From: a plasmid
Length of the DNA: 64,000 nucleotides
Sequence record: NZ_CP031103.1
Reading direction: 5' to 3' (one strand)
The notes under the pieces were generated by a model, which was given only the letters and a program-made list of their open reading frames with translations, was not told where the DNA came from and did no database searches. Below are positions 1 to 20,100 of this stretch, piece after piece. Within the stretch, counting starts at the first letter, position 1, and each line of letters opens with the position of its first letter. The translations under genes were made by a program, and so were the position numbers.

Positions 1-79
1 AGCTATGGAAAAACAGCCACCAACATTACCGTTTAACGCCCGCCCTGCTTATGCTGAAGTAACGAACCGGAGATGAGCC

Positions 80-259
80 ATGAACATTGATCGAGTGATC
101 GCGCTGTTTGAAGGCAACGAGATTGAAGCACAAAATTGGATGAGTCAGCCTAACAGGGCCCTGAAATGGAAGACGCCATCAGAGTTGATGGCGTCCGAAG
201 CGGGGACCGATGAGGTTATGAAACTGATCACTCGTCTGGAGCACGGTGTGTACTCCTGA
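80..259 (+). CDS. DUF2384-like (Xre/MbcA/ParS antitoxin C-terminal domain) small protein
   Basis: 59-aa ORF MNIDRVIALFEGNEIEAQNWMSQPNRALKWKTPSELMASEAGTDEVMKLITRLEHGVYS. It fits the DUF2384 toxin-binding domain pattern (A..W...P...P.EL....G...V..L..R.E.GVY). It is not in the ORF track because it is under 60 aa, and an in-frame stop lies just upstream. Confidence 0.4.
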   Translation: MNIDRVIALFEGNEIEAQNWMSQPNRALKWKTPSELMASEAGTDEVMKLITRLEHGVYS

Positions 260-903
260 GCCTCTGCGGGCCTACACGGGGCACTCATCACTGGCCGCAC
301 GGTTGATGAAGTAAGTCCATTCACTTCCTCTGCAGCGCTCCCTTCCATCGTCTCGCCGTCATTGAATATAAGCGACTTCCCCATTACCCAGGCGAACTGG
401 GTACGGCCTCCAGACAGCACCAACAACACCTGCCCATTAACGAGCTGGCTGATGGGCTCAATCACCGCAAAGCCCGTTGAGGTATCCAGTATTTGGGTGT
501 CGATGCCAACGCCGCAGATCTTCTCTGGAGTGAGCCTGCTCTCTACGTAGTCGTTAGCGGGTGATGCGAAGGCCATCAGAGCACCCTCCCCATAGTACGC
601 AGCATCCAGAGTTTATTCTGGCTGTCATCGGGTGTCTTATCGACGAAAAACGTCTGGTTTTGCTCTATCCAGTTGTTGGCGTCTTGCCAGTTGAAGTGCC
701 AGTGAACTTTCGCCAGCTGGCTGATGAAATCGTCAGTGCGCACACACTGAAAACCCTTCGGATTGTTATGTATTGCTGCGACAAATGCGCTATGAATTTC
801 GTATCGGCGGACCATGATCTACGCTCCTTTTCACTGTTTTTATATACAGTATTTTTTATGAAAGTGTAGATCAAGGTGGTTTACAAGATAGGCTGCTCTG
901 TTC

Positions 904-1320
904 TTAATCGATGAAAAGCGCAGGTGAAATTCCAAAGCGCGCTGCCAGCGCTTTGATATGGTCTAATGATAATTTACGCTCGCCTTTAAGCACGCGAGAT
1001 ACCATCGATTTTCCGCCAATCTCCGGTAAGTCGGAGAATGTTAAATCATGTTGGCTTATAAGAGTGCGTAATACCGCAACGCCTGTAGGGATCGCGGCTA
1101 ATCGCGCGTTAAATTCTGCATATTCCGGCGCGGTACTTTCGTATTCTTTAATTTTCGCAGCGACGATCTCAAAGAGTGGGTTGTCTGTATCGTTCGCGTC
1201 GAAAAGATTTTCTACAAATTCCAGCGCGGCGGCGTGCTGTTCTTCGGTATGAATCCCAGCGATGAAAGGCGCAACGGCAAAAAGCGCCGCGCCTGCTTTA
1301 GTGATTTCTGGCATGTTCAT
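904..1320 (-). CDS. higA: HigA antitoxin (XRE-family helix-turn-helix)
   Basis: 138 aa with a C-terminal XRE helix-turn-helix (LPEIGGKSMVSRVLKGERKLSLDHIKALAARFGISPALFI). Its start overlaps the upstream toxin stop in an ATGA arrangement. Confidence 0.8.
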   Translation of the reverse strand: MNMPEITKAGAALFAVAPFIAGIHTEEQHAAALEFVENLFDANDTDNPLFEIVAAKIKEYESTAPEYAEFNARLAAIPTGVAVLRTLISQHDLTFSDLPEIGGKSMVSRVLKGERKLSLDHIKALAARFGISPALFID

Positions 1321-1556
1321 TTTATCTTTCCTTTCTTCGCTTTGGCGTTGAATACGTCATACTCTTTATGAGTAAAAATACCTTTTACGAAAACGATTTG
1401 ATTAACAAAGTCGATTTTCAAAACAGCTCGCCATTCGTTATGACCGATATCGATAATGTAGTGTCTATTCAGATCCTTATGGTTGTCCAACGAGCGGAAA
1501 AATTTTCTTAGGTCTTCCGGCGTTGCGAAAGAGCCCTTTTCTATCGTCTTAGCCAT
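1317..1556 (-). pseudogene. higB: HigB toxin with its 5' end split off by IS1 (first 5 codons remain at 2393..2407)
   Basis: The 79-aa ORF MAKTIEKGSFATPEDLRKFFRSLDNHKDLNRHYIIDIGHNEWRAVLK..THKEYDVF aligns with E. coli HigB from about residue 25. Upstream sequence reads in-frame as ...HLISRKTIREAAEKFPRAAAELIE, which matches the HigB N-terminus MHLITQKALKDAAEKYP. The initiator ATG plus codons H-L-I-S lie across the IS1 at 2393..2407. Confidence 0.7.
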
Positions 1557-1639
1557 TTCGATAAGCTCAGCAGCCGCGCGCGGAAATTTTTCTGCTGCCT
1601 CCCTGATCGTCTTCCTTGAAATTAGGTAATGACTCCAAC

Positions 1640-2143
1640 TTACTGATAGTGTTTTATGTTCAGATAATGCCCGATGACCTTGTCATGCAGCTCCACCGAT
1701 TTTGAGAACGACAGTGACTTCCGTCCCAGCCTTGCCAGATGTTGTCTCAGATTCAGGTTATGTCGCTCAATGCGCTGAGTGTAACGCTTGCTGATAACGT
1801 GCAGCTTTCCCTTCAGGCGTGATTCGTACAGCGGCCAGCCATCCGTCATCCATACCACGACCTCAAAGGCCGACAGCAGGCTCAGAAGACGCTCCAGTGT
1901 GGCCAGAGTGCGTTCACCGAAGACGTGCGCCACAACCGTCCTCCGTATCCTGTCATACGCGTAAAACAGCCAGCGCTGACGTGATTTAGCACCGACGTAG
2001 CCCCACTGTTCGTCCATTTCAGCGCAGACAATCACATCACTGCCCGGTTGTATGCGCGAGGTTACCGACTGCGGCCTGAGTTTTTTAAGTGACGTAAAAC
2101 CGTGTTGAGGCCAACGCCCATAATGCGTGCACTGGCGCGACAT
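1640..2143 (-). CDS. insB: IS1 InsB (transposase C-terminal part, normally made as an InsAB' frameshift fusion)
   Basis: 167 aa. It diverges from copies 2 and 3 at several residues, for example MSRQCTHYG versus MPGNRPHYG. Confidence 0.9.
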
Positions 2144-2337
2144 CCGACGCCATTCATGGCCATATCAATGATTGTCTGGTGCGTACCGGGCTGAGAGGCG
2201 GTGTAAGTGAACTGTAGTTGCCATGTTTTACGGCAATGAGAGCAGAGATAGCGCTGATGTCCGGCAGTGCTTTTGCCGTTACGCACCACGCCTTCAGTAG
2301 CGGAGCAGGAAGGACATCTGATGGAAATGGAAGCCAC
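2062..2337 (-). CDS. insA: IS1 InsA
   Basis: 91 aa beginning [40 protein letters not shown]. Confidence 0.9.
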
Positions 2338-2407
2338 GCAAGCACCTTAAAATCACCATCATACACTAAATCAGTAAGTTGGCAGCATTACCTGAAATTA
2401 AGTGCAT

Positions 2408-2460
2408 TTCGAGCGCTCTGTGTTGTCTGTATGTCAACAGAATATCTTTTTGTTGCCTAA
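2408..2460 (-). promoter_or_regulatory. Putative native higBA promoter, now separated from most of higB by IS1
   Basis: On the minus strand: TTGACC, 17 bp, TATTCT, then about 25 bp to the higB ATG at 2407. Confidence 0.4.
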
Positions 2461-2461
2461 T

Positions 2462-2710
2462 GGTCAACTTTATGCGCACAAAAAACCGCCCTTTGTGGGG
2501 GCGGTAGAGCTCCGGGGAAAGTTCGGCTGCGACCCTCTCGCACCAGGACGCAGGTACCAGCGGATTTTCTGTCGCCTTGCTGCGAACGGTATAGTAATAC
2601 TCATCCATAGGGGCGTGCTGCGTGTCGTAGAAATAGCCCTCGTTCAGGTACGCTTCGGACACCATCAGCAGGCGGTTGTCCTCTTCAGTGAGGCCCCCCA
2701 GCAGCGCCTT
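2462..2710 (-). pseudogene. Orphan C-terminal gene fragment, truncated upstream by the partial IS3-family element
   Basis: Good codon usage for ...LLGGLTEEDNRLLMVSEAYLNEGYFYDTQHAPMDEYYYTVRSKATENPLVPASWCERVAAELSPELYRP. There is no stop codon before a strong hairpin plus T-run at 2485-2515. Confidence 0.3.
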
Positions 2711-3352
2711 CAACGCCGAATCGGGTATCCGACCTGAGCCTTTATCCCGACACGTTTCATCAGTCGCCAGACTCTGTTGACTCCGCACTGTTGCCCGCTG
2801 TCCCGCAGATCCAGATGGATCTTGCGATAACCATAGACGCATCCCGATTCCAGCCAGAACTGTTTAATCTGTCCTGTCAGTCTCAGGTCTGCCCGATGGC
2901 GTTGTGAATGCGGCTGCTGAAGCCATGCGTAAAAGCCACTGGGATGAACATCCAGCACCCGACAGAGCAGGCGAACAGGCCAGCAACGGGCGTTGTCACG
3001 GATAAAGGCGTACCTCAGTCGGACAGTTTTGCGAAGTACGCCGCGGCTTTTTTTAATATGTCCCGTTCGTCAGTAACCCGCTTCAGCTCTTTCTGGAGAC
3101 GGCGGATCTCGGCCTGAGCATCTGACTGTTCTTTATGAGTGGAGGAATCCGGACCGTACTTCTTTATCCAGGCGTAAAGGCTGTGGGTGGTGATATCGAG
3201 ACGTGTTGCAACGCTGGAAACAGAATAACCACGATCAACAACCTGTTTGACTGCTTCAGTTTTAAACTCTTCGGGATAACGCTTACCGCTCATGGGCACC
3301 TCTCTTTAAGCCATCTTAAATGACTCTGAGGTGTCTGTTAAACCCGTGGCGA
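2710..3352 (-). mobile_element. Truncated IS3-family element (intact orfA, only the first ~82 codons of orfB)
   Basis: The left end TGAATCGCCACGGGTTTAACAGACACC... sits at about 3352. OrfA is 94 aa. OrfB starts MLDVHPSGFYAWLQQPHSQRHRADLRLTGQIKQF... and stops abruptly at about 2710. Confidence 0.7.
3015..3299 (-). CDS. IS3-family OrfA (helix-turn-helix transposase subunit)
   Basis: MPMSGKRYPEEFKTEAVKQVVDRGYSVSSVATRLDITTHSLYAWIKKY...ILKKAAAYFAKLSD, a typical IS3 OrfA with a leucine-zipper C-terminus. Confidence 0.8.
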   Translation of the reverse strand: MPMSGKRYPEEFKTEAVKQVVDRGYSVSSVATRLDITTHSLYAWIKKYGPDSSTHKEQSDAQAEIRRLQKELKRVTDERDILKKAAAYFAKLSD

Positions 3353-3421
3353 TTCATTTTTCCCAGTGATGCCAAACACTGGTCCCCTGAGAACTATGTA
3401 TGTCTATCAGCTGGAGGTCAT

Positions 3422-3742
3422 ATGTCTTTACGTGGTACTGGAGAGTTTGTCCGTGACAGCATAATGGCTAATCGTCTGGCATTTAATGCACATAAAGAGC
3501 TTTATCATTTTCTTATGGCCGCTAATCAGTACGGCTTAAAAGCTATTGTAGATGAAACGACAACTTTGCTAATGGAAAGGGGTTATGACTATTTGTCTGC
3601 GATCAACATGTCGGTCTCGCGGGCAAATTATTTATTTGAACTAGCAAAAGGCGAACAGAGGATTTATCAGGAGGTTAGAGGCCGCCTGGATAATTCTGGT
3701 GGTTTTCCCAGCGACGCCCCTTCACCAGATTGGCCAATATAG
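3422..3742 (+). CDS. Hypothetical protein
   Basis: GGAGG ribosome-binding site then ATG at 3422. The 106-aa product begins MSLRGTGEFVRDSIMANRLAFNAHKELYHF. It converges on a bidirectional terminator. Confidence 0.45.
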   Translation: MSLRGTGEFVRDSIMANRLAFNAHKELYHFLMAANQYGLKAIVDETTTLLMERGYDYLSAINMSVSRANYLFELAKGEQRIYQEVRGRLDNSGGFPSDAPSPDWPI

Positions 3743-3753
3743 CATCCAGATGT

Positions 3754-3779
3754 AGCCCCGCTTGGACGGGGCTTTCGTT
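3754..3779. terminator. Bidirectional intrinsic terminator between convergent genes
   Basis: agccccgcttggacggggct hairpin with T-rich flanks. Confidence 0.6.
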
Positions 3780-3780
3780 A

Positions 3781-4086
3781 TTACTTCCGAGTATTCCAAT
3801 CATTAACTACTGATTGCATTGCCTTTTCATACTCTGAAAGCGCTTCCGCCTCTGTTCGCATCAAAGATGCCGTTTCGTGATATTCTCCTTTCATTGATGC
3901 CCCACAGCAACACTCGATCCAAAACACTGCAGTGCTGGTGATATTGCTGAGTTCCAAGTTATCTTTTTCCCCGCAAAAAGGGCATGGCTTGAGGGTGTGA
4001 CCATAATGTGAACCGTCATCCGAATAGCTCCCGCTATAGTCACCGGGAAGGCCATAAATTTGAATTTTTTCAGCACTGCCACACAT
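3781..4086 (-). CDS. Lar-family restriction alleviation protein-like
   Basis: LKPCPFCG plus a downstream Cys cluster (WIECCCGA), as in Lar. AGGAGAA ribosome-binding site before the ATG. Confidence 0.5.
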   Translation of the reverse strand: MCGSAEKIQIYGLPGDYSGSYSDDGSHYGHTLKPCPFCGEKDNLELSNITSTAVFWIECCCGASMKGEYHETASLMRTEAEALSEYEKAMQSVVNDWNTRK

Positions 4087-4289
4087 TATTATGTTCTCCT
4101 ATCGCTGTGTTACTTCAACCAACCTGTCTGCCAAAATTTTACAGAGCGCGGACTCAATTTTTTCTCTAGCCCGTCCTGCCAACAATACAATCTTAATGTA
4201 TTCAGTGCAGTATTAATTGCGATCCATGCCAGTCGCTGGGAAGAATCTTAGTCACAACACTAAAAAACGAGCAGGAACGTTTAAATAGG

Positions 4290-4430
4290 GTTTACTCAAA
4301 AACTCAAATGAGTAAAAACACATTTATTCATTTACACATTCATTGTGATGCGATAAGGTTGGCACTCAAAAACTCATAACAGTAAATACTCATTTACTCA
4401 TGAGAGTAAATGTAATGAAAAATGAGGCGC
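4290..4430. repeat. Partition-site (parC/parH-like) repeats upstream of parF
   Basis: Multiple ACTCA(A/T)TTAC and GTAAATGAGT motifs in direct and inverted orientation. Similar repeats recur at 5055-5100 and 5341-5390. Confidence 0.6.
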
Positions 4431-4433
4431 TAA

Positions 4434-5051
4434 ATGAAAGTTATCTCTTTTCTGAATCCTAAGGGCGGAAGCGGTAAAACTACCGTGACAATCAACGTTA
4501 GTACCAGCATTGCAAAAAAACATCGCGTAGCAGTTGTCGACACAGATCCACAGCAAAGCCTGGCTAACTGGAACAAAGCAGAAAAAGCAAACTTCGATGT
4601 TTTTACTGCAGCATCTGAGAAAGATGTCTATACCATCAGAAAAGAACTGGCGGACTATGACTATGTCATCATCGATGGTGCTGGCGCTCTTTCTGTTATA
4701 ACTGCAGCTGCTGTGATGGTTAGTGACTTGGTCATCATTCCGGTTACGCCGTCACCTCTTGATTTTTCTGCCTCGGGTGCAGTTATCAGTGTTCTTGAAG
4801 CACAGTCGTATAACAGACCGGTAGAATGCCGTTTCCTTATTACTCGCAAAATCGAGCAAGCAACAATGCTCACTGTGTTACGGGAAAGTATCGCTGCAAC
4901 AGGTATCGCTTCCTTAAAGACTGCAATCACGCAGCGGCAGAGCTACGTTAAATCTGTGCTTGATGGCGAAACTGTATTTGATACCAACGATGGTGCAGCG
5001 AAAGGCGAGATAGAAGTTCTGGCAGGTGAAATCCTCAAGTTAGTTGATTAA
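4434..5051 (+). CDS. parF: ParF-type (type Ib ParA) partition ATPase
   Basis: MKVISFLNPKGGSGKTT deviant Walker A. 205 aa, close to ParF of TP228. Confidence 0.9.
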   Translation: MKVISFLNPKGGSGKTTVTINVSTSIAKKHRVAVVDTDPQQSLANWNKAEKANFDVFTAASEKDVYTIRKELADYDYVIIDGAGALSVITAAAVMVSDLVIIPVTPSPLDFSASGAVISVLEAQSYNRPVECRFLITRKIEQATMLTVLRESIAATGIASLKTAITQRQSYVKSVLDGETVFDTNDGAAKGEIEVLAGEILKLVD

Positions 5052-5103
5052 ATACACATTTACACATAAACTCAAATGAGTAAATGTGTATTGGAGTAAT
5101 TCG

Positions 5104-5343
5104 ATGAGTTTAATAAAGCAGAATCGCAATCAGCCACCACCTGCAAAGGTGATGACTTTCGGTGAAAACAGAGACTTAAATAAAGTCATTTCGACAGCTC
5201 CCGCGGCTGTACAAAAGCGTGTGAACTTCAACATGCCAGAAGATAAACATCAAAGACTGAAAGCCGCATGTGCTCGAAAAGGAGCATCGATTTCTGACGT
5301 GATGAATGACCTTGTCGATGCATGGCTAAAAGATAATGAGTAA
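5104..5343 (+). CDS. parG: ParG-type ribbon-helix-helix centromere-binding protein
   Basis: MTFGENRDL...KRVNFNMPEDKHQRLKAACARKGASISDVMNDLVDAWLKDNE resembles ParG. GGAG ribosome-binding site before the ATG at 5104. Confidence 0.85.
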   Translation: MSLIKQNRNQPPPAKVMTFGENRDLNKVISTAPAAVQKRVNFNMPEDKHQRLKAACARKGASISDVMNDLVDAWLKDNE

Positions 5344-5612
5344 ATGAGATTTTACTCCTAAACTCATTTACTCAAATGTTCATCGGGCTATTTGTCTACG
5401 CTTATCTAAATTGGGTTATGGTCAATGTTAGTTAACAAACCAAGAACTACGAGTCCGGTTCGAAGGATACAATCGTAGTGCTCGCCACAGCCTGTGACCG
5501 GGTTTGCCCGCGAACAGGCGAGGAAGCGCAATTGCTTAAGGATCTAAGGTAGCACTTACGCTCGAAACACGACCTTGCATATGCTTCTGTAGCATCATGA
5601 TTACTATCAATT

Positions 5613-5621
5613 TTATCCACA
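5613..5621 (+). promoter_or_regulatory. DnaA box (TTATCCACA) in the replicon origin region
   Basis: Exact consensus 9-mer. It is followed by an AT-rich tract at 5640-5730. Confidence 0.5.
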
Positions 5622-5730
5622 TATCCAACGGATAGATCAATTATTCAGATCAATATATAGATCATGTAAGTACAAAAGAGATCACCCTTTCTATAAGCAT
5701 ATGATCCATAATTAAAAAAATAGGATCCTG

Positions 5731-5836
5731 ACGGTTACTTTCATAAGAAAAGCGGTTACTTTCATGACCGTAGCGTTTACTTTCATAACTGAGGCGGTTA
5801 TTTTCATAACCTAGATGCGGTTACTATCATAATCAT
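5731..5836 (+). repeat. Iterons: five direct ~21-bp repeats (g)CGGTTACTTTCATAA upstream of repA
   Basis: Repeats start near 5733, 5754, 5776, 5797 and 5820 with 21-22 bp spacing. Confidence 0.8.
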
Positions 5837-5865
5837 GGCTGCTTTTACTCACTGGATGTGGATAA

Positions 5866-6738
5866 ATGGAAAATTCTGAAGCGCAGCAAAGTCCTTTTGC
5901 TATCAACAAGAAAGATTCTGGAGAAAGTTATGAACTGACTCCGAACAGTAATAAGACAGTTCAGCCTGTAGCTCTGTTACGTCTTAGCGTGTTTACTCCT
6001 GTGTCGCCAAAGGAAAAGGGAAAACGCGATTTTCTGATTGATGCTTCTGAAGAACTATCCAGCCTGGAGGTGGCTCGACAGGAAGGCTATACCAACATCA
6101 AAATTCAGGGCGCAAAGCTCGGCATGTCAACTGACTTTAAAACCTGGATTGGCATCATTTCTGCTTTCTCCAAGTACGGATATACTGCGGATAAAATTTG
6201 TCTGCCGTTCTCTGAGTTTGCGAGGATGTGCGGCCTCCGGCCAACAGACATCAATGGGCGTGCCCGTAACCGGTTAAGTGAGGCGCTGTTTAATCTGTCC
6301 AGCGTTACTCTCTCGTTTCGTAGCCAGGATGGAAAGCGCAGCCTCGTTACCCACCTTGTGCAGCGTGCCCAGCTGGACATGGATACTAATATGGTCGAAT
6401 TAGTCGGTGACCCAAGCCTCTGGGAATTATATCGCTACGATCATAAGGTTCTGCTTGGTCTGAAAGCACTCTCGGCACTCTCACGTAAGGAGTCTGCTCA
6501 ATCTCTCTATGTCTATTTCGAAAGCATGCCAGCAGGTACGCTGTACGTCTCTATGAAGCGTCTACGTGAAAGGCTTGCTATGGAATCTCAGGTTAAAGAC
6601 CAGAATTCAACCATACGACGTGCGATGAAGGATCTGAAGGGCATTGGTTATCTTGATTACAACGAAACCAAAAAAGGTCGGGAAATCATGTTCATTGTTC
6701 ATAACCGCTCGCCGCGACTCGCGTTGACCGTCGCGTGA
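5866..6738 (+). CDS. repA: Iteron-binding replication initiator RepA (RepFIB-like)
   Basis: 290 aa, flanked on both sides by iterons, with a DnaA box and AT-rich region upstream. Confidence 0.8.
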   Translation: MENSEAQQSPFAINKKDSGESYELTPNSNKTVQPVALLRLSVFTPVSPKEKGKRDFLIDASEELSSLEVARQEGYTNIKIQGAKLGMSTDFKTWIGIISAFSKYGYTADKICLPFSEFARMCGLRPTDINGRARNRLSEALFNLSSVTLSFRSQDGKRSLVTHLVQRAQLDMDTNMVELVGDPSLWELYRYDHKVLLGLKALSALSRKESAQSLYVYFESMPAGTLYVSMKRLRERLAMESQVKDQNSTIRRAMKDLKGIGYLDYNETKKGREIMFIVHNRSPRLALTVA

Positions 6739-6739
6739 A

Positions 6740-6960
6740 GGCGGTCACATTCATAACAATGACGCTACAAGGCGGTCATATTCATAATATTCCAATTAAA
6801 AGCGGTCGTTTTCATAAGTGCAGTCTATTCTGAGGGCTTTACGCCGGTCAGATGAGCCGAGTTTTATGAACGCAGCGATACCTTATCTATGATCATGTTA
6901 TGAAAGTAACCGCCAGTTATGAATGCTCCCGCCCATTTATGATAGTGACCGCTTTCCGTT
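6740..6960. repeat. Downstream iterons (direct, plus inverted copies at 6895-6960)
   Basis: GGCGGTCACATTCATAAC, GGCGGTCATATTCATAAT and AGCGGTCGTTTTCATAAG, then inverted TTATGAAAGTAACCGCC and TTATGATAGTGACCGC. Confidence 0.7.
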
Positions 6961-6995
6961 GGATGTTAGTTAAGCCATTTTTAACGTGAACAAGG

Positions 6996-7763
6996 CTAAC
7001 GATTGCCGCGCAGGAGCTGCAGCGCATCCTGAGTATCGAGTGAGAACCGGACCTGCTGACTGGCGGCCACATCGAGCGCAAAAATTTTCGTATACACCTC
7101 AGTCGACTCAAACTTCTCGTGCCCCATCAGGCCCTGGAGAACCTTGGGATGAACATGGCCATATAACAGGTGCATCGCGAAGCTGTGTCTGAACGTGTGC
7201 GGGCTGACCGGAATACTGAATCTCACCCCGTCCCGTTCTGCTGCCTCGACGGCACGCTCAAGCCAGTTGCGCACCGTGCGGTCGGTAACGCCCCAGACCG
7301 GCATGGCCCGGCGTTCACCTGTTAGCTTGTCGTCCTCGAATCTTTCCCGCGTGCTCGCAAACAGCCGACGCATTTCATCCACGTATCCGGGATCTGACAG
7401 CGGGATCACCCGGTTCGCACTTTTTCCCTTTTTCGGGCGACCGCCAGCTGTGCGGCGTTGTTTAGCCGTACGGACCACCACGTGCGGGATCTCATCATTG
7501 AGGTGAAAGTCCCTTCTTCTGAGTGCCAGTGCTTCGTTGAGGCGTGCGCCGGTGTTCCACAGCGTGTTAATGAACGCGTGCTGGTTCCAGTCAGGAAGGT
7601 AATGCAGCAGGCCAGCCACTTCCGGCGCCAGAAGGTACTTCGGCATCTCGGTATAGTGCTTGGCCATTTCCCGTAGCGACAGTGCCCGTCCGTAGTCAAA
7701 CGGTGCAGAAGTGGCAGTCACCTGCAGGGCAGGGGAGTGATGAACAAAAGCGGGCAGATTCAT
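6996..7763 (-). CDS. Tyrosine site-specific recombinase (plasmid multimer-resolution or integrase type)
   Basis: The C-terminal catalytic region HTFRHSFAMHLL...GH...TEVY carries the tyrosine-recombinase R..HxxR..Y signature. Confidence 0.8.
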   Translation of the reverse strand: MNLPAFVHHSPALQVTATSAPFDYGRALSLREMAKHYTEMPKYLLAPEVAGLLHYLPDWNQHAFINTLWNTGARLNEALALRRRDFHLNDEIPHVVVRTAKQRRTAGGRPKKGKSANRVIPLSDPGYVDEMRRLFASTRERFEDDKLTGERRAMPVWGVTDRTVRNWLERAVEAAERDGVRFSIPVSPHTFRHSFAMHLLYGHVHPKVLQGLMGHEKFESTEVYTKIFALDVAASQQVRFSLDTQDALQLLRGNR

Positions 7764-8586: not shown

Positions 8587-8601
8587 GGTAATGACTCCAA
8601 C

Positions 8602-9105
8602 TTATTGATAGTGTTTTATGTTCAGATAATGCCCGATGACTTTGTCATGCAGCTCCACCGATTTTGAGAACGACAGCGACTTCCGTCCCAGCCGTGCCAG
8701 GTGCTGCCTCAGATTCAGGTTATGCCGCTCAATTCGCTGCGTATATCGCTTGCTGATTACGTGCAGCTTTCCCTTCAGGCGGGATTCATACAGCGGCCAG
8801 CCATCCGTCATCCATATCACCACGTCAAAGGGTGACAGCAGGCTCATAAGACGCCCCAGCGTCGCCATAGTGCGTTCACCGAATACGTGCGCAACAACCG
8901 TCTTCCGGAGCCTGTCATACGCGTAAAACAGCCAGCGCTGGCGCGATTTAGCCCCGACGTAGCCCCACTGTTCGTCCATTTCCGCGCAGACGATGACGTC
9001 ACTGCCCGGCTGTATGCGCGAGGTTACCGACTGCGGCCTGAGTTTTTTAAGTGACGTAAAATCGTGTTGAGGCCAACGCCCATAATGCGGGCGGTTGCCC
9101 GGCAT
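8602..9105 (-). CDS. insB: IS1 InsB
   Basis: 167 aa. Confidence 0.9.
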
Positions 9106-9299
9106 CCAACGCCATTCATGGCAATATCAATGATTTTCTGGTGCGTACCGGGTTGAGAGGCGGTGTAAGTGAACTGTAGCTGCCATGTTTTACGGCAGTG
9201 AGAGCAGAGATAGCGCTGATGTCCGGCGGTGCTTTTGCCGTTACGCACCACCCCGTCAGTAGCTGAACAGGAGGGACAGCTGATAGAAACAGAAGCCAC
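9024..9299 (-). CDS. insA: IS1 InsA
   Basis: 91 aa. Confidence 0.9.
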
Positions 9300-9354
9300 T
9301 GGAGCACCTCAAAAACACCATCATACACTAAATCAGTAAGTTGGCAGCATCACC

Positions 9355-19333: not shown

Positions 19334-20100
19334 GGTAATGACTCCAACTTATTGATAGTGTTTTATGTTCAGATAATGCCCGATGACTTTGTCATGCAGC
19401 TCCACCGATTTTGAGAACGACAGCGACTTCCGTCCCAGCCGTGCCAGGTGCTGCCTCAGATTCAGGTTATGCCGCTCAATTCGCTGCGTATATCGCTTGC
19501 TGATTACGTGCAGCTTTCCCTTCAGGCGGGATTCATACAGCGGCCAGCCATCCGTCATCCATATCACCACGTCAAAGGGTGACAGCAGGCTCATAAGACG
19601 CCCAGCGTCGCCATAGTGCGTTCACCGAATACGTGCGCAACAACCGTCTTCCGGAGCCTGTCATACGCGTAAAACAGCCAGCGCTGGCGCGATTTAGCCC
19701 CGACATAGCCCCACTGTTCGTCCATTTCCGCGCAGACGATGACGTCACTGCCCGGCTGTATGCGCGAGGTTACCGACTGCGGCCTGAGTTTTTTAAGTGA
19801 CGTAAAATCGTGTTGAGGCCAACGCCCATAATGCGGGCGGTTGCCCGGCATCCAACGCCATTCATGGCCATATCAATGATTTTCTGGTGCGTACCGGGTT
19901 GAGAAGCGGTGTAAGTGAACTGCAGTTGCCATGTTTTACGGCAGTGAGAGCAGAGATAGCGCTGATGTCCGGCGGTGCTTTTGCCGTTACGCACCACCCC
20001 GTCAGTAGCTGAACAGGAGGGACAGCTGATAGAAACAGAAGCCACAGGAGCACCTCAAAAATACCATCATACACTAAATCAGTAAGTTGGCAGCATCACC
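19334..20100 (-). mobile_element. IS1 copy 3 (767 bp, insB frameshifted by a 1-bp deletion)
   Basis: Nearly identical to copy 2 except gcccc->gccc at about 19600, which splits insB into ORFs 19349..19594 and 19591..19851. insA 19770..20045 is intact. Confidence 0.9.

Follow-up and report, generated by a model that had tools for sequence, protein, structure and literature searches.

Interruption of the higB toxin gene by IS1 in a plasmid-borne higBA operon with an intact higA antitoxin gene

Organization of the higBA locus

The sequence considered here is a 64,000-nucleotide stretch of a plasmid (record NZ_CP031103.1), referred to throughout as the window. It carries, on the minus strand, a higBA toxin–antitoxin operon in which the toxin gene, higB, is split by a copy of the insertion sequence (IS) IS1. 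Read in the direction of transcription, the locus consists of a hairpin resembling an intrinsic terminator, a predicted promoter, the first five codons of higB, the IS1 element, the remainder of higB and the antitoxin gene, higA (Table 1). An earlier note on this DNA had proposed that the toxin was inactivated by the insertion while the antitoxin was retained and, as an alternative, that the toxin was driven anew by an outward promoter of IS1.

Table 1. Features of the interrupted higBA locus (positions in the window; aa, amino acids; ORF, open reading frame; IRL and IRR, left and right inverted repeats of IS1).
Feature	Position	Strand	Description
higA	904..1320	-	138 aa, intact; ATG overlaps the higB stop codon as ATGA (1317-1320)
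higB 3' fragment	1317..1624	-	Duplicated part of codons 3-5, codons 6-104 and stop; severed from start codon and promoter
Residual 79-aa ORF	1317..1556	-	Starts at HigB Met26; not the natural form of the gene (homologues, 104-105 aa)
Target-site duplication TGAAATTA, higB-body side	1617..1624		Exact, 8 bp
IS1 element	1625..2392	-	768 bp; insA-proximal end (IRL) at 2392, IRR at 1625; transposase genes oriented as higB
insB' frame	1640..2143	-	167 aa; NF033558, 147.9 bits (cut-off 100); own stop at 1640
insA	2062..2337	-	91 aa, GTG start; IS1/IS1595 zinc-binding domain, 41 bits (cut-off 28)
Target-site duplication TGAAATTA, promoter side	2393..2400		Exact, 8 bp
higB 5' stub	2393..2407	-	Codons 1-5 (ATG CAC TTA ATT TCA), abutting the IRL end of IS1
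Predicted higBA promoter	2439..2467	-	TTGACC-17-TATTCT, 9/12 match; now directed at the IRL end of IS1
Intrinsic-terminator-like hairpin	2475..2505	-	ACCGCCC-N7-GGGCGGT and T run; just upstream of the higBA promoter

The IS1 element and its target duplication

By its length, its terminal repeats, its insA and insB' genes, its A6C site and its target duplication, the element in higB is a member of the IS1 family. Its ends read GGTAATGACTCC... and ...GGCAGCATTACC, with 20 of the 23 terminal positions complementary, and it contains the A6C -1 frameshift site (TTAAAAAACTC / TTAAAAAAC) that provides the route to the InsAB' transposase. The NCBIfam model that recognises the insB' frame (NF033558, transpos_IS1) also aligns with InsA, over model positions 1-81, with a score of 87.7 bits (cut-off 100). 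The claim of the earlier note that an 8-bp duplication exactly flanks this copy of IS1 holds: TGAAATTA is present on both sides, and a match of eight letters out of eight at a fixed position has a chance probability of about 1.5e-5. Target duplications of 8 or 9 bp have been reported for IS1 (PMC12428005). On the plus strand, the sequence across the insertion is ...CTTCCTTGAAATTA / GGTAATGACTCCAACTTACTGAT...(IS1)...ATCAGTAAGTTGGCAGCATTACC / TGAAATTAAGTGCAT..., the strokes marking the ends of the element.

The insertion resembles classical IS1 insertions in the size of the element, its repeats, its insA/insB' genes with an A6C site, its AT-rich 8-bp duplication and its position as a simple insertion into a coding sequence. 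It differs from them in that the copy in higB is a sequence variant, with just 91% identity to the two other IS1 copies of the window; its derivation from these copies was rejected on that ground. In megablast searches, the IS1 in higB was 99.4% identical to IS1 copies of many enterobacterial plasmids.

The two further IS1 copies (8587-9354 and 19334-20100) are 99% identical to each other and lie in the same orientation, without matching target duplications. The segment of about 10 kb between them resembles small plasmids with MobX and type ISP restriction-enzyme genes, and is possibly a captured small plasmid.

Reconstruction of higB and its relationship to known HigB toxins

Excision in silico of IS1 together with one copy of the repeat gives a 315-nucleotide ORF encoding 104 residues (MHLISRKTIREAAEKFPRAAAELIEMAKTIEK...KGKIK; full protein, MHLISRKTIREAAEKFPRAAAELIEMAKTIEKGSFATPEDLRKFFRSLDNHKDLNRHYIIDIGHNEWRAVLKIDFVNQIVFVKGIFTHKEYDVFNAKAKKGKIK). 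The insertion site lies between codons 5 and 6, and the duplication spans part of codon 3 through codon 5. The reconstructed protein matches the Pfam HigB toxin family (PF09907, HigB_toxin) with 66.3 bits (cut-off 27; E 3e-18), and its residues 1-99 align with residues 1-99 of the HigB of Escherichia coli K-12 (5IFG_A; E 3.3e-26). The reading frame recovered by removal of the element, as proposed in the earlier note, is thus a HigB frame collinear with the K-12 toxin. The separation of the start codon from the body of the gene, given in that note as 768 bp, was essentially right; the exact distance from the start codon to codon 6 is now 776 bp (768 + 8).

K-12 HigB and six database homologues, whose identity to the reconstruction is 49-94%, all have lengths of 104-105 aa and begin with MHLI or MRLI; M1, L3, I4, K7, A12, P17 and L23 are invariant among them. 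An AlphaFold2 (AF2) model of the homologue that is 94% identical (P0001; predicted local distance difference test score, pLDDT, 84.5) superimposes on 5IFG_A with template-modelling (TM) scores of 0.89/0.93 and a root-mean-square deviation of 1.2 Å. In this model, residues 1-25 form strand beta1 (2-3), helix alpha1 (6-15) and the first half of helix alpha2 (17-32). A tblastn search of the window with the reconstructed HigB gave 99% identity over residues 2-104, corresponding to the higB 3' fragment, and no second higB or higA was found in the window by this search. No NCBIfam model matched the reconstructed HigB or HigA.

HigA is likewise related to its K-12 counterpart: its residues 4-138 align with residues 5-138 of the HigA chain 5IFG_B (phmmer, E 7.8e-49). 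A putative C-terminal helix-turn-helix (HTH) region, at residues 103-135, scores 22.5 bits with the Pfam model HTH_3, just below the 23-bit cut-off, and shows the strongest conservation with K-12 HigA within the protein. The gene follows higB, and the ATGA overlap would couple the translation of the two. By sequence and predicted fold, the locus belongs to the family of the E. coli K-12 HigB/HigA system (YgjN/YgjM; PDB 5IFG, 6KML; Christensen-Dalsgaard et al. 2010, PMC2814082). It shares with that system a toxin-first gene order, a 104-aa PF09907 HigB and a HigA of 138 aa whose C-terminal region is a candidate HTH, alignments that are collinear over the full length, a predicted fold with a TM-score of about 0.9 to 5IFG_A, and a sigma-70-like promoter just upstream of higB. 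It differs in that the window HigB is only about 47% identical to K-12 HigB, the locus lies on a mobile Rep3/ParA-ParG backbone rather than at the K-12 chromosomal site, and the toxin gene is split by IS1, leaving the system defective. Ribosome-dependent mRNA cleavage, with growth inhibition neutralised by HigA, has been shown for K-12 HigB only (PMC2814082). By analogy with K-12, HigA of the window would repress the hig promoter and neutralise HigB.

Uninterrupted alleles in public contigs

The HigA protein sequence of the window is listed in 124 index blocks of the public collection. Exact-sequence look-up of this protein led to ten distinct public contigs (L005-L014; ENA, NCBI, JGI and Logan); 11 loci were fetched in all, the eleventh (L015) being the same contig as L009 (JGI 3300011827). 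The ten contigs are 99.5-100% identical to window positions 7096..2393 and 1627..1, and the two flank alignments abut with an 11-bp overlap, leaving no room for IS1. A 35-mer across the uninterrupted site was present in all ten, and a 35-mer across the IS1 junction in none (0/10). These contigs carry a single copy of TGAAATTA, and in L002 and L003, intact loci that are more distant (87% nucleotide identity), TAATTTCA is likewise present once. Nine of the ten contigs have an unbroken higB, whose product equals the reconstruction at all 104 residues, and the 95 bp upstream of higB, promoter included, are also identical. The higB' 3' fragment of the window carries no secondary mutations.

These observations point to a simple transposition event in which IS1 entered higB between codons 5 and 6, duplicated 8 bp of target sequence and turned the toxin gene of a type II HigB/HigA operon into a pseudogene; we put the probability of this reading at about 0.9. 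The boundaries of the element, its target duplication, the otherwise identical uninterrupted allele and the full-length HigB homology of the restored ORF are direct observations. The higB of the window is a pseudogene, its ORF being split after codon 5, and there is no intact expressible coding sequence. The proposal that IS1 inactivated the toxin while the antitoxin was kept is borne out by the full-length HigB obtained on reconstruction, the nine identical public alleles and the intact higA. Because near-identical contigs carry the empty site, the insertion is taken to be recent and specific to this lineage, on an element that is widespread; with no secondary mutations in higB', it looks very recent.

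The same contigs bear on another possibility raised by the earlier note, namely that the 79-aa form (starting MAKTIEK) is the natural full-length toxin and that the similarity upstream is coincidental. The chances of this are next to nil, given that all homologues are 104-105 aa long with a conserved N-terminus, that the alignment with 5IFG_A is collinear from residue 1, and that an identical uninterrupted 104-aa allele exists in nine public contigs.

The IS1-bearing higB allele was not found in PLSDB, in the E. coli complete genomes or in the fetched public contigs. Megablast searches with IS1 included were swamped by more than 5000 IS1-bearing plasmids, and the IS-less reconstruction was used instead; it gave one partial match in PLSDB (Leclercia pM17-63) and none in the E. 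coli complete genomes. A HigA-based search found only Buttiauxella noackiae (78% identical) among genome representatives and nothing among viral contigs. Exact look-up of the 79-aa ORF returned only a frameshifted allele (L015), and no second IS1-bearing copy. A scan of metagenome contigs for the IS1::higB junction gave 0 matches, but is uninformative, as the control empty-site 35-mer also gave 0; these negatives are weak because that 35-mer is present in the JGI contigs fetched by look-up, the collections being different. The window allele is a fresh instance of two well-known phenomena, insertional inactivation by IS1 and orphan antitoxins.

Promoter, residual reading frame and the possibility of a re-driven toxin

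The promoter-like site that the earlier note named as the native promoter (TTGACC-17-TATTCT) is present on the minus strand, its -35 hexamer lying 2-7 bp beyond position 2460, at which the feature described there ended. It is conserved, its counterpart in L002 and L003 reading TTGACT-17-TATTGT. In K-12, higBA is transcribed from a single HigA-repressed promoter upstream of higB, and transcripts with a 5' end upstream of higA were not detected (PMC2814082); since this single autoregulated promoter was mapped upstream of K-12 higB, the site in the window probably has the same function. The motifs GGCAAC/GTTGAC/GACAAC around the -10 hexamer, spaced as GGCAAC-N13-GTTGAC and GTTGAC-N5-GACAAC, are conserved and are candidate operators. 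The terminator-like hairpin marks the upstream edge of the higBA cassette: homology with L003 begins at 2499, and homology with the Leclercia backbone resumes at 2497.

From the predicted promoter and the native start codon, the stub of higB reads into IS1 as a 13-aa ORF, MHLISGNAANLLI (2407-2366, minus strand), the tail of an ORF spanning 2366..2842. On the other side of the element, the higB' frame is open for 24 codons into IS1, with no in-frame ATG, GTG or TTG between the IS1-internal stop and Met26. According to the AF2 model, a product starting at Met26 would be deprived of beta1 (residues 2-3), alpha1 (residues 6-15) and residues 17-25 of alpha2. A functional toxin is very unlikely to be made, because the native promoter and start codon would yield the 13-aa peptide only, and the Met26 form would lack the N-terminal strand and about 1.5 helices of the RelE-like fold. 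The chief bearing of the finding is on annotation: the 79-aa ORF is best labelled a fragment of a higB pseudogene, and higA an orphan antitoxin.

An attenuated or re-wired toxin is one alternative: read-through from insAB', or a hybrid promoter at the IRR, would express HigB(26-104) together with HigA, and the module would be active under the control of IS1. IS1 and higB do share the same orientation, the higB' frame has no other damage, the 79-aa ORF still reaches 63 bits with the Pfam HigB model and retains the conserved C-terminal residues R68, T87, H88 and Y91, and no intrinsic terminator is predicted on the minus strand of IS1. Against this, no sigma-70-like site matching at 9/12 positions or more was found on the minus strand between IS1 and higA; a relaxed scan of this interval found only two 8/12 sites (1529-1502 and 1348-1319), neither at the junction. 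A hybrid or outward promoter at the IRR end was rejected because the junction has no site of at least 8/12. No in-frame start precedes Met26, and a translational fusion of InsB with HigB' was rejected as well, the frames being different and insB having its own stop codon. With beta1, alpha1 and half of alpha2, the product would also lose the invariant residues K7, A12, P17 and L23, and this short form occurs in no natural homologue. In addition, IS1 insertions are classically polar. The chance that the toxin is re-driven by IS1, as the earlier note had suggested, appears very slight, given the missing promoter-like site at the junction and the missing start before Met26.

A few points nevertheless speak against a simple inactivation by IS1, or at least against its presumed consequences. 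The native higB start has only a weak Shine–Dalgarno match (GAG), as does Met26; as the native start is equally weak, ribosome binding gives no ground for discounting translation from Met26. As no intrinsic terminator is predicted within IS1 on this strand, read-through transcripts over higB' and higA may exist. Only one IS1-bearing sequence is available, from which a selected loss and a neutral recent insertion are indistinguishable. Loss of toxicity, reduced expression of higA and loss of plasmid addiction would be expected consequences, on the basis of sequence, the predicted structure of a homologue 94% identical to HigB and the analogy with K-12 higBA. Nothing was found that contradicts the IS1 insertion itself.

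Expression and possible roles of the orphan higA

The insertion would sever higA from the only predicted promoter of the operon. Transcripts of higA would then have to cross IS1 by read-through, starting at the hig promoter and/or a weak insA promoter, or else start at weak cryptic sites. Given the polarity of IS1 insertions, higA is probably expressed at a reduced level.

It is conceivable that the loss of the toxin is final and that higA has been kept by selection, as an anti-addiction or immunity factor against related incoming higBA elements or as a transcription factor. In favour of this, three alleles with independent defects in higB (those of the window, L009 and Leclercia pM17-63, described below) have all kept an intact higA, the hig promoter, which HigA would repress, faces the IRL end of IS1, and anti-addiction roles have been proposed for orphan antitoxins (PMC7192599). 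Retention of higA in such alleles would, however, be expected from toxin-first decay in the absence of selection on the antitoxin, and the IS1 event looks recent, with flanks 99.9% identical to empty-site contigs, leaving no time for higA to decay. Moreover, the window holds no second higB for HigA to neutralise, and higA is without its predicted promoter. A retained, functional antitoxin is highly unlikely on this evidence. In a related scheme, which we consider equally speculative and correspondingly doubtful, HigA, its own synthesis and transcription of the IS1 transposase would form one feedback loop, or the orphan HigA would confer immunity against related higBA plasmids. The loop is conceivable because the promoter that HigA would repress fires into the IRL/insA end of IS1, and higA lies downstream of the element. 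If such a loop existed, stress-induced degradation of HigA would raise read-through into IS1 and alter its transposition.

Independent lesions in relatives and toxin-first decay

Two relatives carry other, independent lesions in higB. In the contig L009/L015 (JGI 3300011827; at ~4750 in L009), a 4-bp CGCG deletion in the run CCGCGCGCGG, at codons 18-19, shifts the higB frame, and HigA is identical. The plasmid pM17-63 of Leclercia adecarboxylata (L001, 4764-4856) has the same backbone, with about 95% identity. The equivalent of window positions 1356-2496 has been lost from it, so that most of higB and the promoter are gone; what remains is the final 35 bp of higB and a 138-aa higA that is intact. 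Together with the window, these alleles represent three independent inactivations of higB with retention of higA, which is the order expected for the decay of a toxin–antitoxin (TA) system. Loss of the antitoxin first would be lethal, which is why the toxin goes first; the window locus would be at the first stage of such decay, with the toxin lost and post-segregational killing by its higBA abolished.

In Klebsiella genomes, orphan antitoxins that stem from degrading TA pairs are reported to be abundant (PMC7192599). The orphan antitoxins of that survey, of the Klebsiella pneumoniae complex, likewise stand beside a disabled toxin in the original genetic context, and independent toxin lesions recur in relatives. 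The window differs from these cases in that the intact ancestral allele and the exact lesion are known to the base, and the event looks very recent. It provides a clean case of toxin-first decay from such an ancestor, of a kind that is well known and implies no new mechanism. The loss of a post-segregational-killing module bears on the predicted stability of the replicon.

Genomic surroundings

The neighbours of the higBA cassette (terminator, promoter, higB and higA; ~908-2499) are a Rep3 replication gene, parA/parG, a Lar-type gene and a phage-type integrase gene, a setting that fits a maintenance module. The Rep3/ParA-ParG/Lar/integrase segment (3300-7096) is 99.9% identical to many public contigs, including a 4.6-Mb NCBI contig (GCA_019584355.1); neither PLSDB nor the E. 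coli complete genomes gave a near match to it. Chromosomal integration of this element is possible.

Upstream of the cassette, a backbone gene survives as a 3' remnant, cut at ~2727 by the remnant of an IS3-family element (2710-3299, minus strand) with an intact orfA-like ORF (3015-3299) and an orfB fragment (2710-2958). The junction between the two (~2727) is shared with IS1-free public contigs. In the window (2408-2842, minus strand) and in L005-L014, the frame of the truncated backbone gene is open through the hairpin and the promoter into higB. Because this upstream frame stays open into higB, public gene calls list 'HigB_toxin' proteins of 206, 249 and 363 aa, which are most likely a gene-calling artefact rather than real fusions.

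A 59-aa ORF on the plus strand (80-259) consists solely of an Xre/MbcA/ParS C-terminal toxin-binding domain (PF09722, E 6.5e-14). No RES-type toxin gene adjoins it, and the Leclercia plasmid and public contigs have it too; it is possibly another orphan antitoxin fragment. The remainder of the window is a mosaic that includes the two further IS1 copies, the segment resembling a small mobilisable plasmid and sil/pco/mer genes. The region 20000-44000 carries the sil (silver), pco (copper) and mer (mercury) resistance genes together with Tn3-family transposases, and is 93-96% identical to plasmids of Klebsiella, Salmonella and E. coli.

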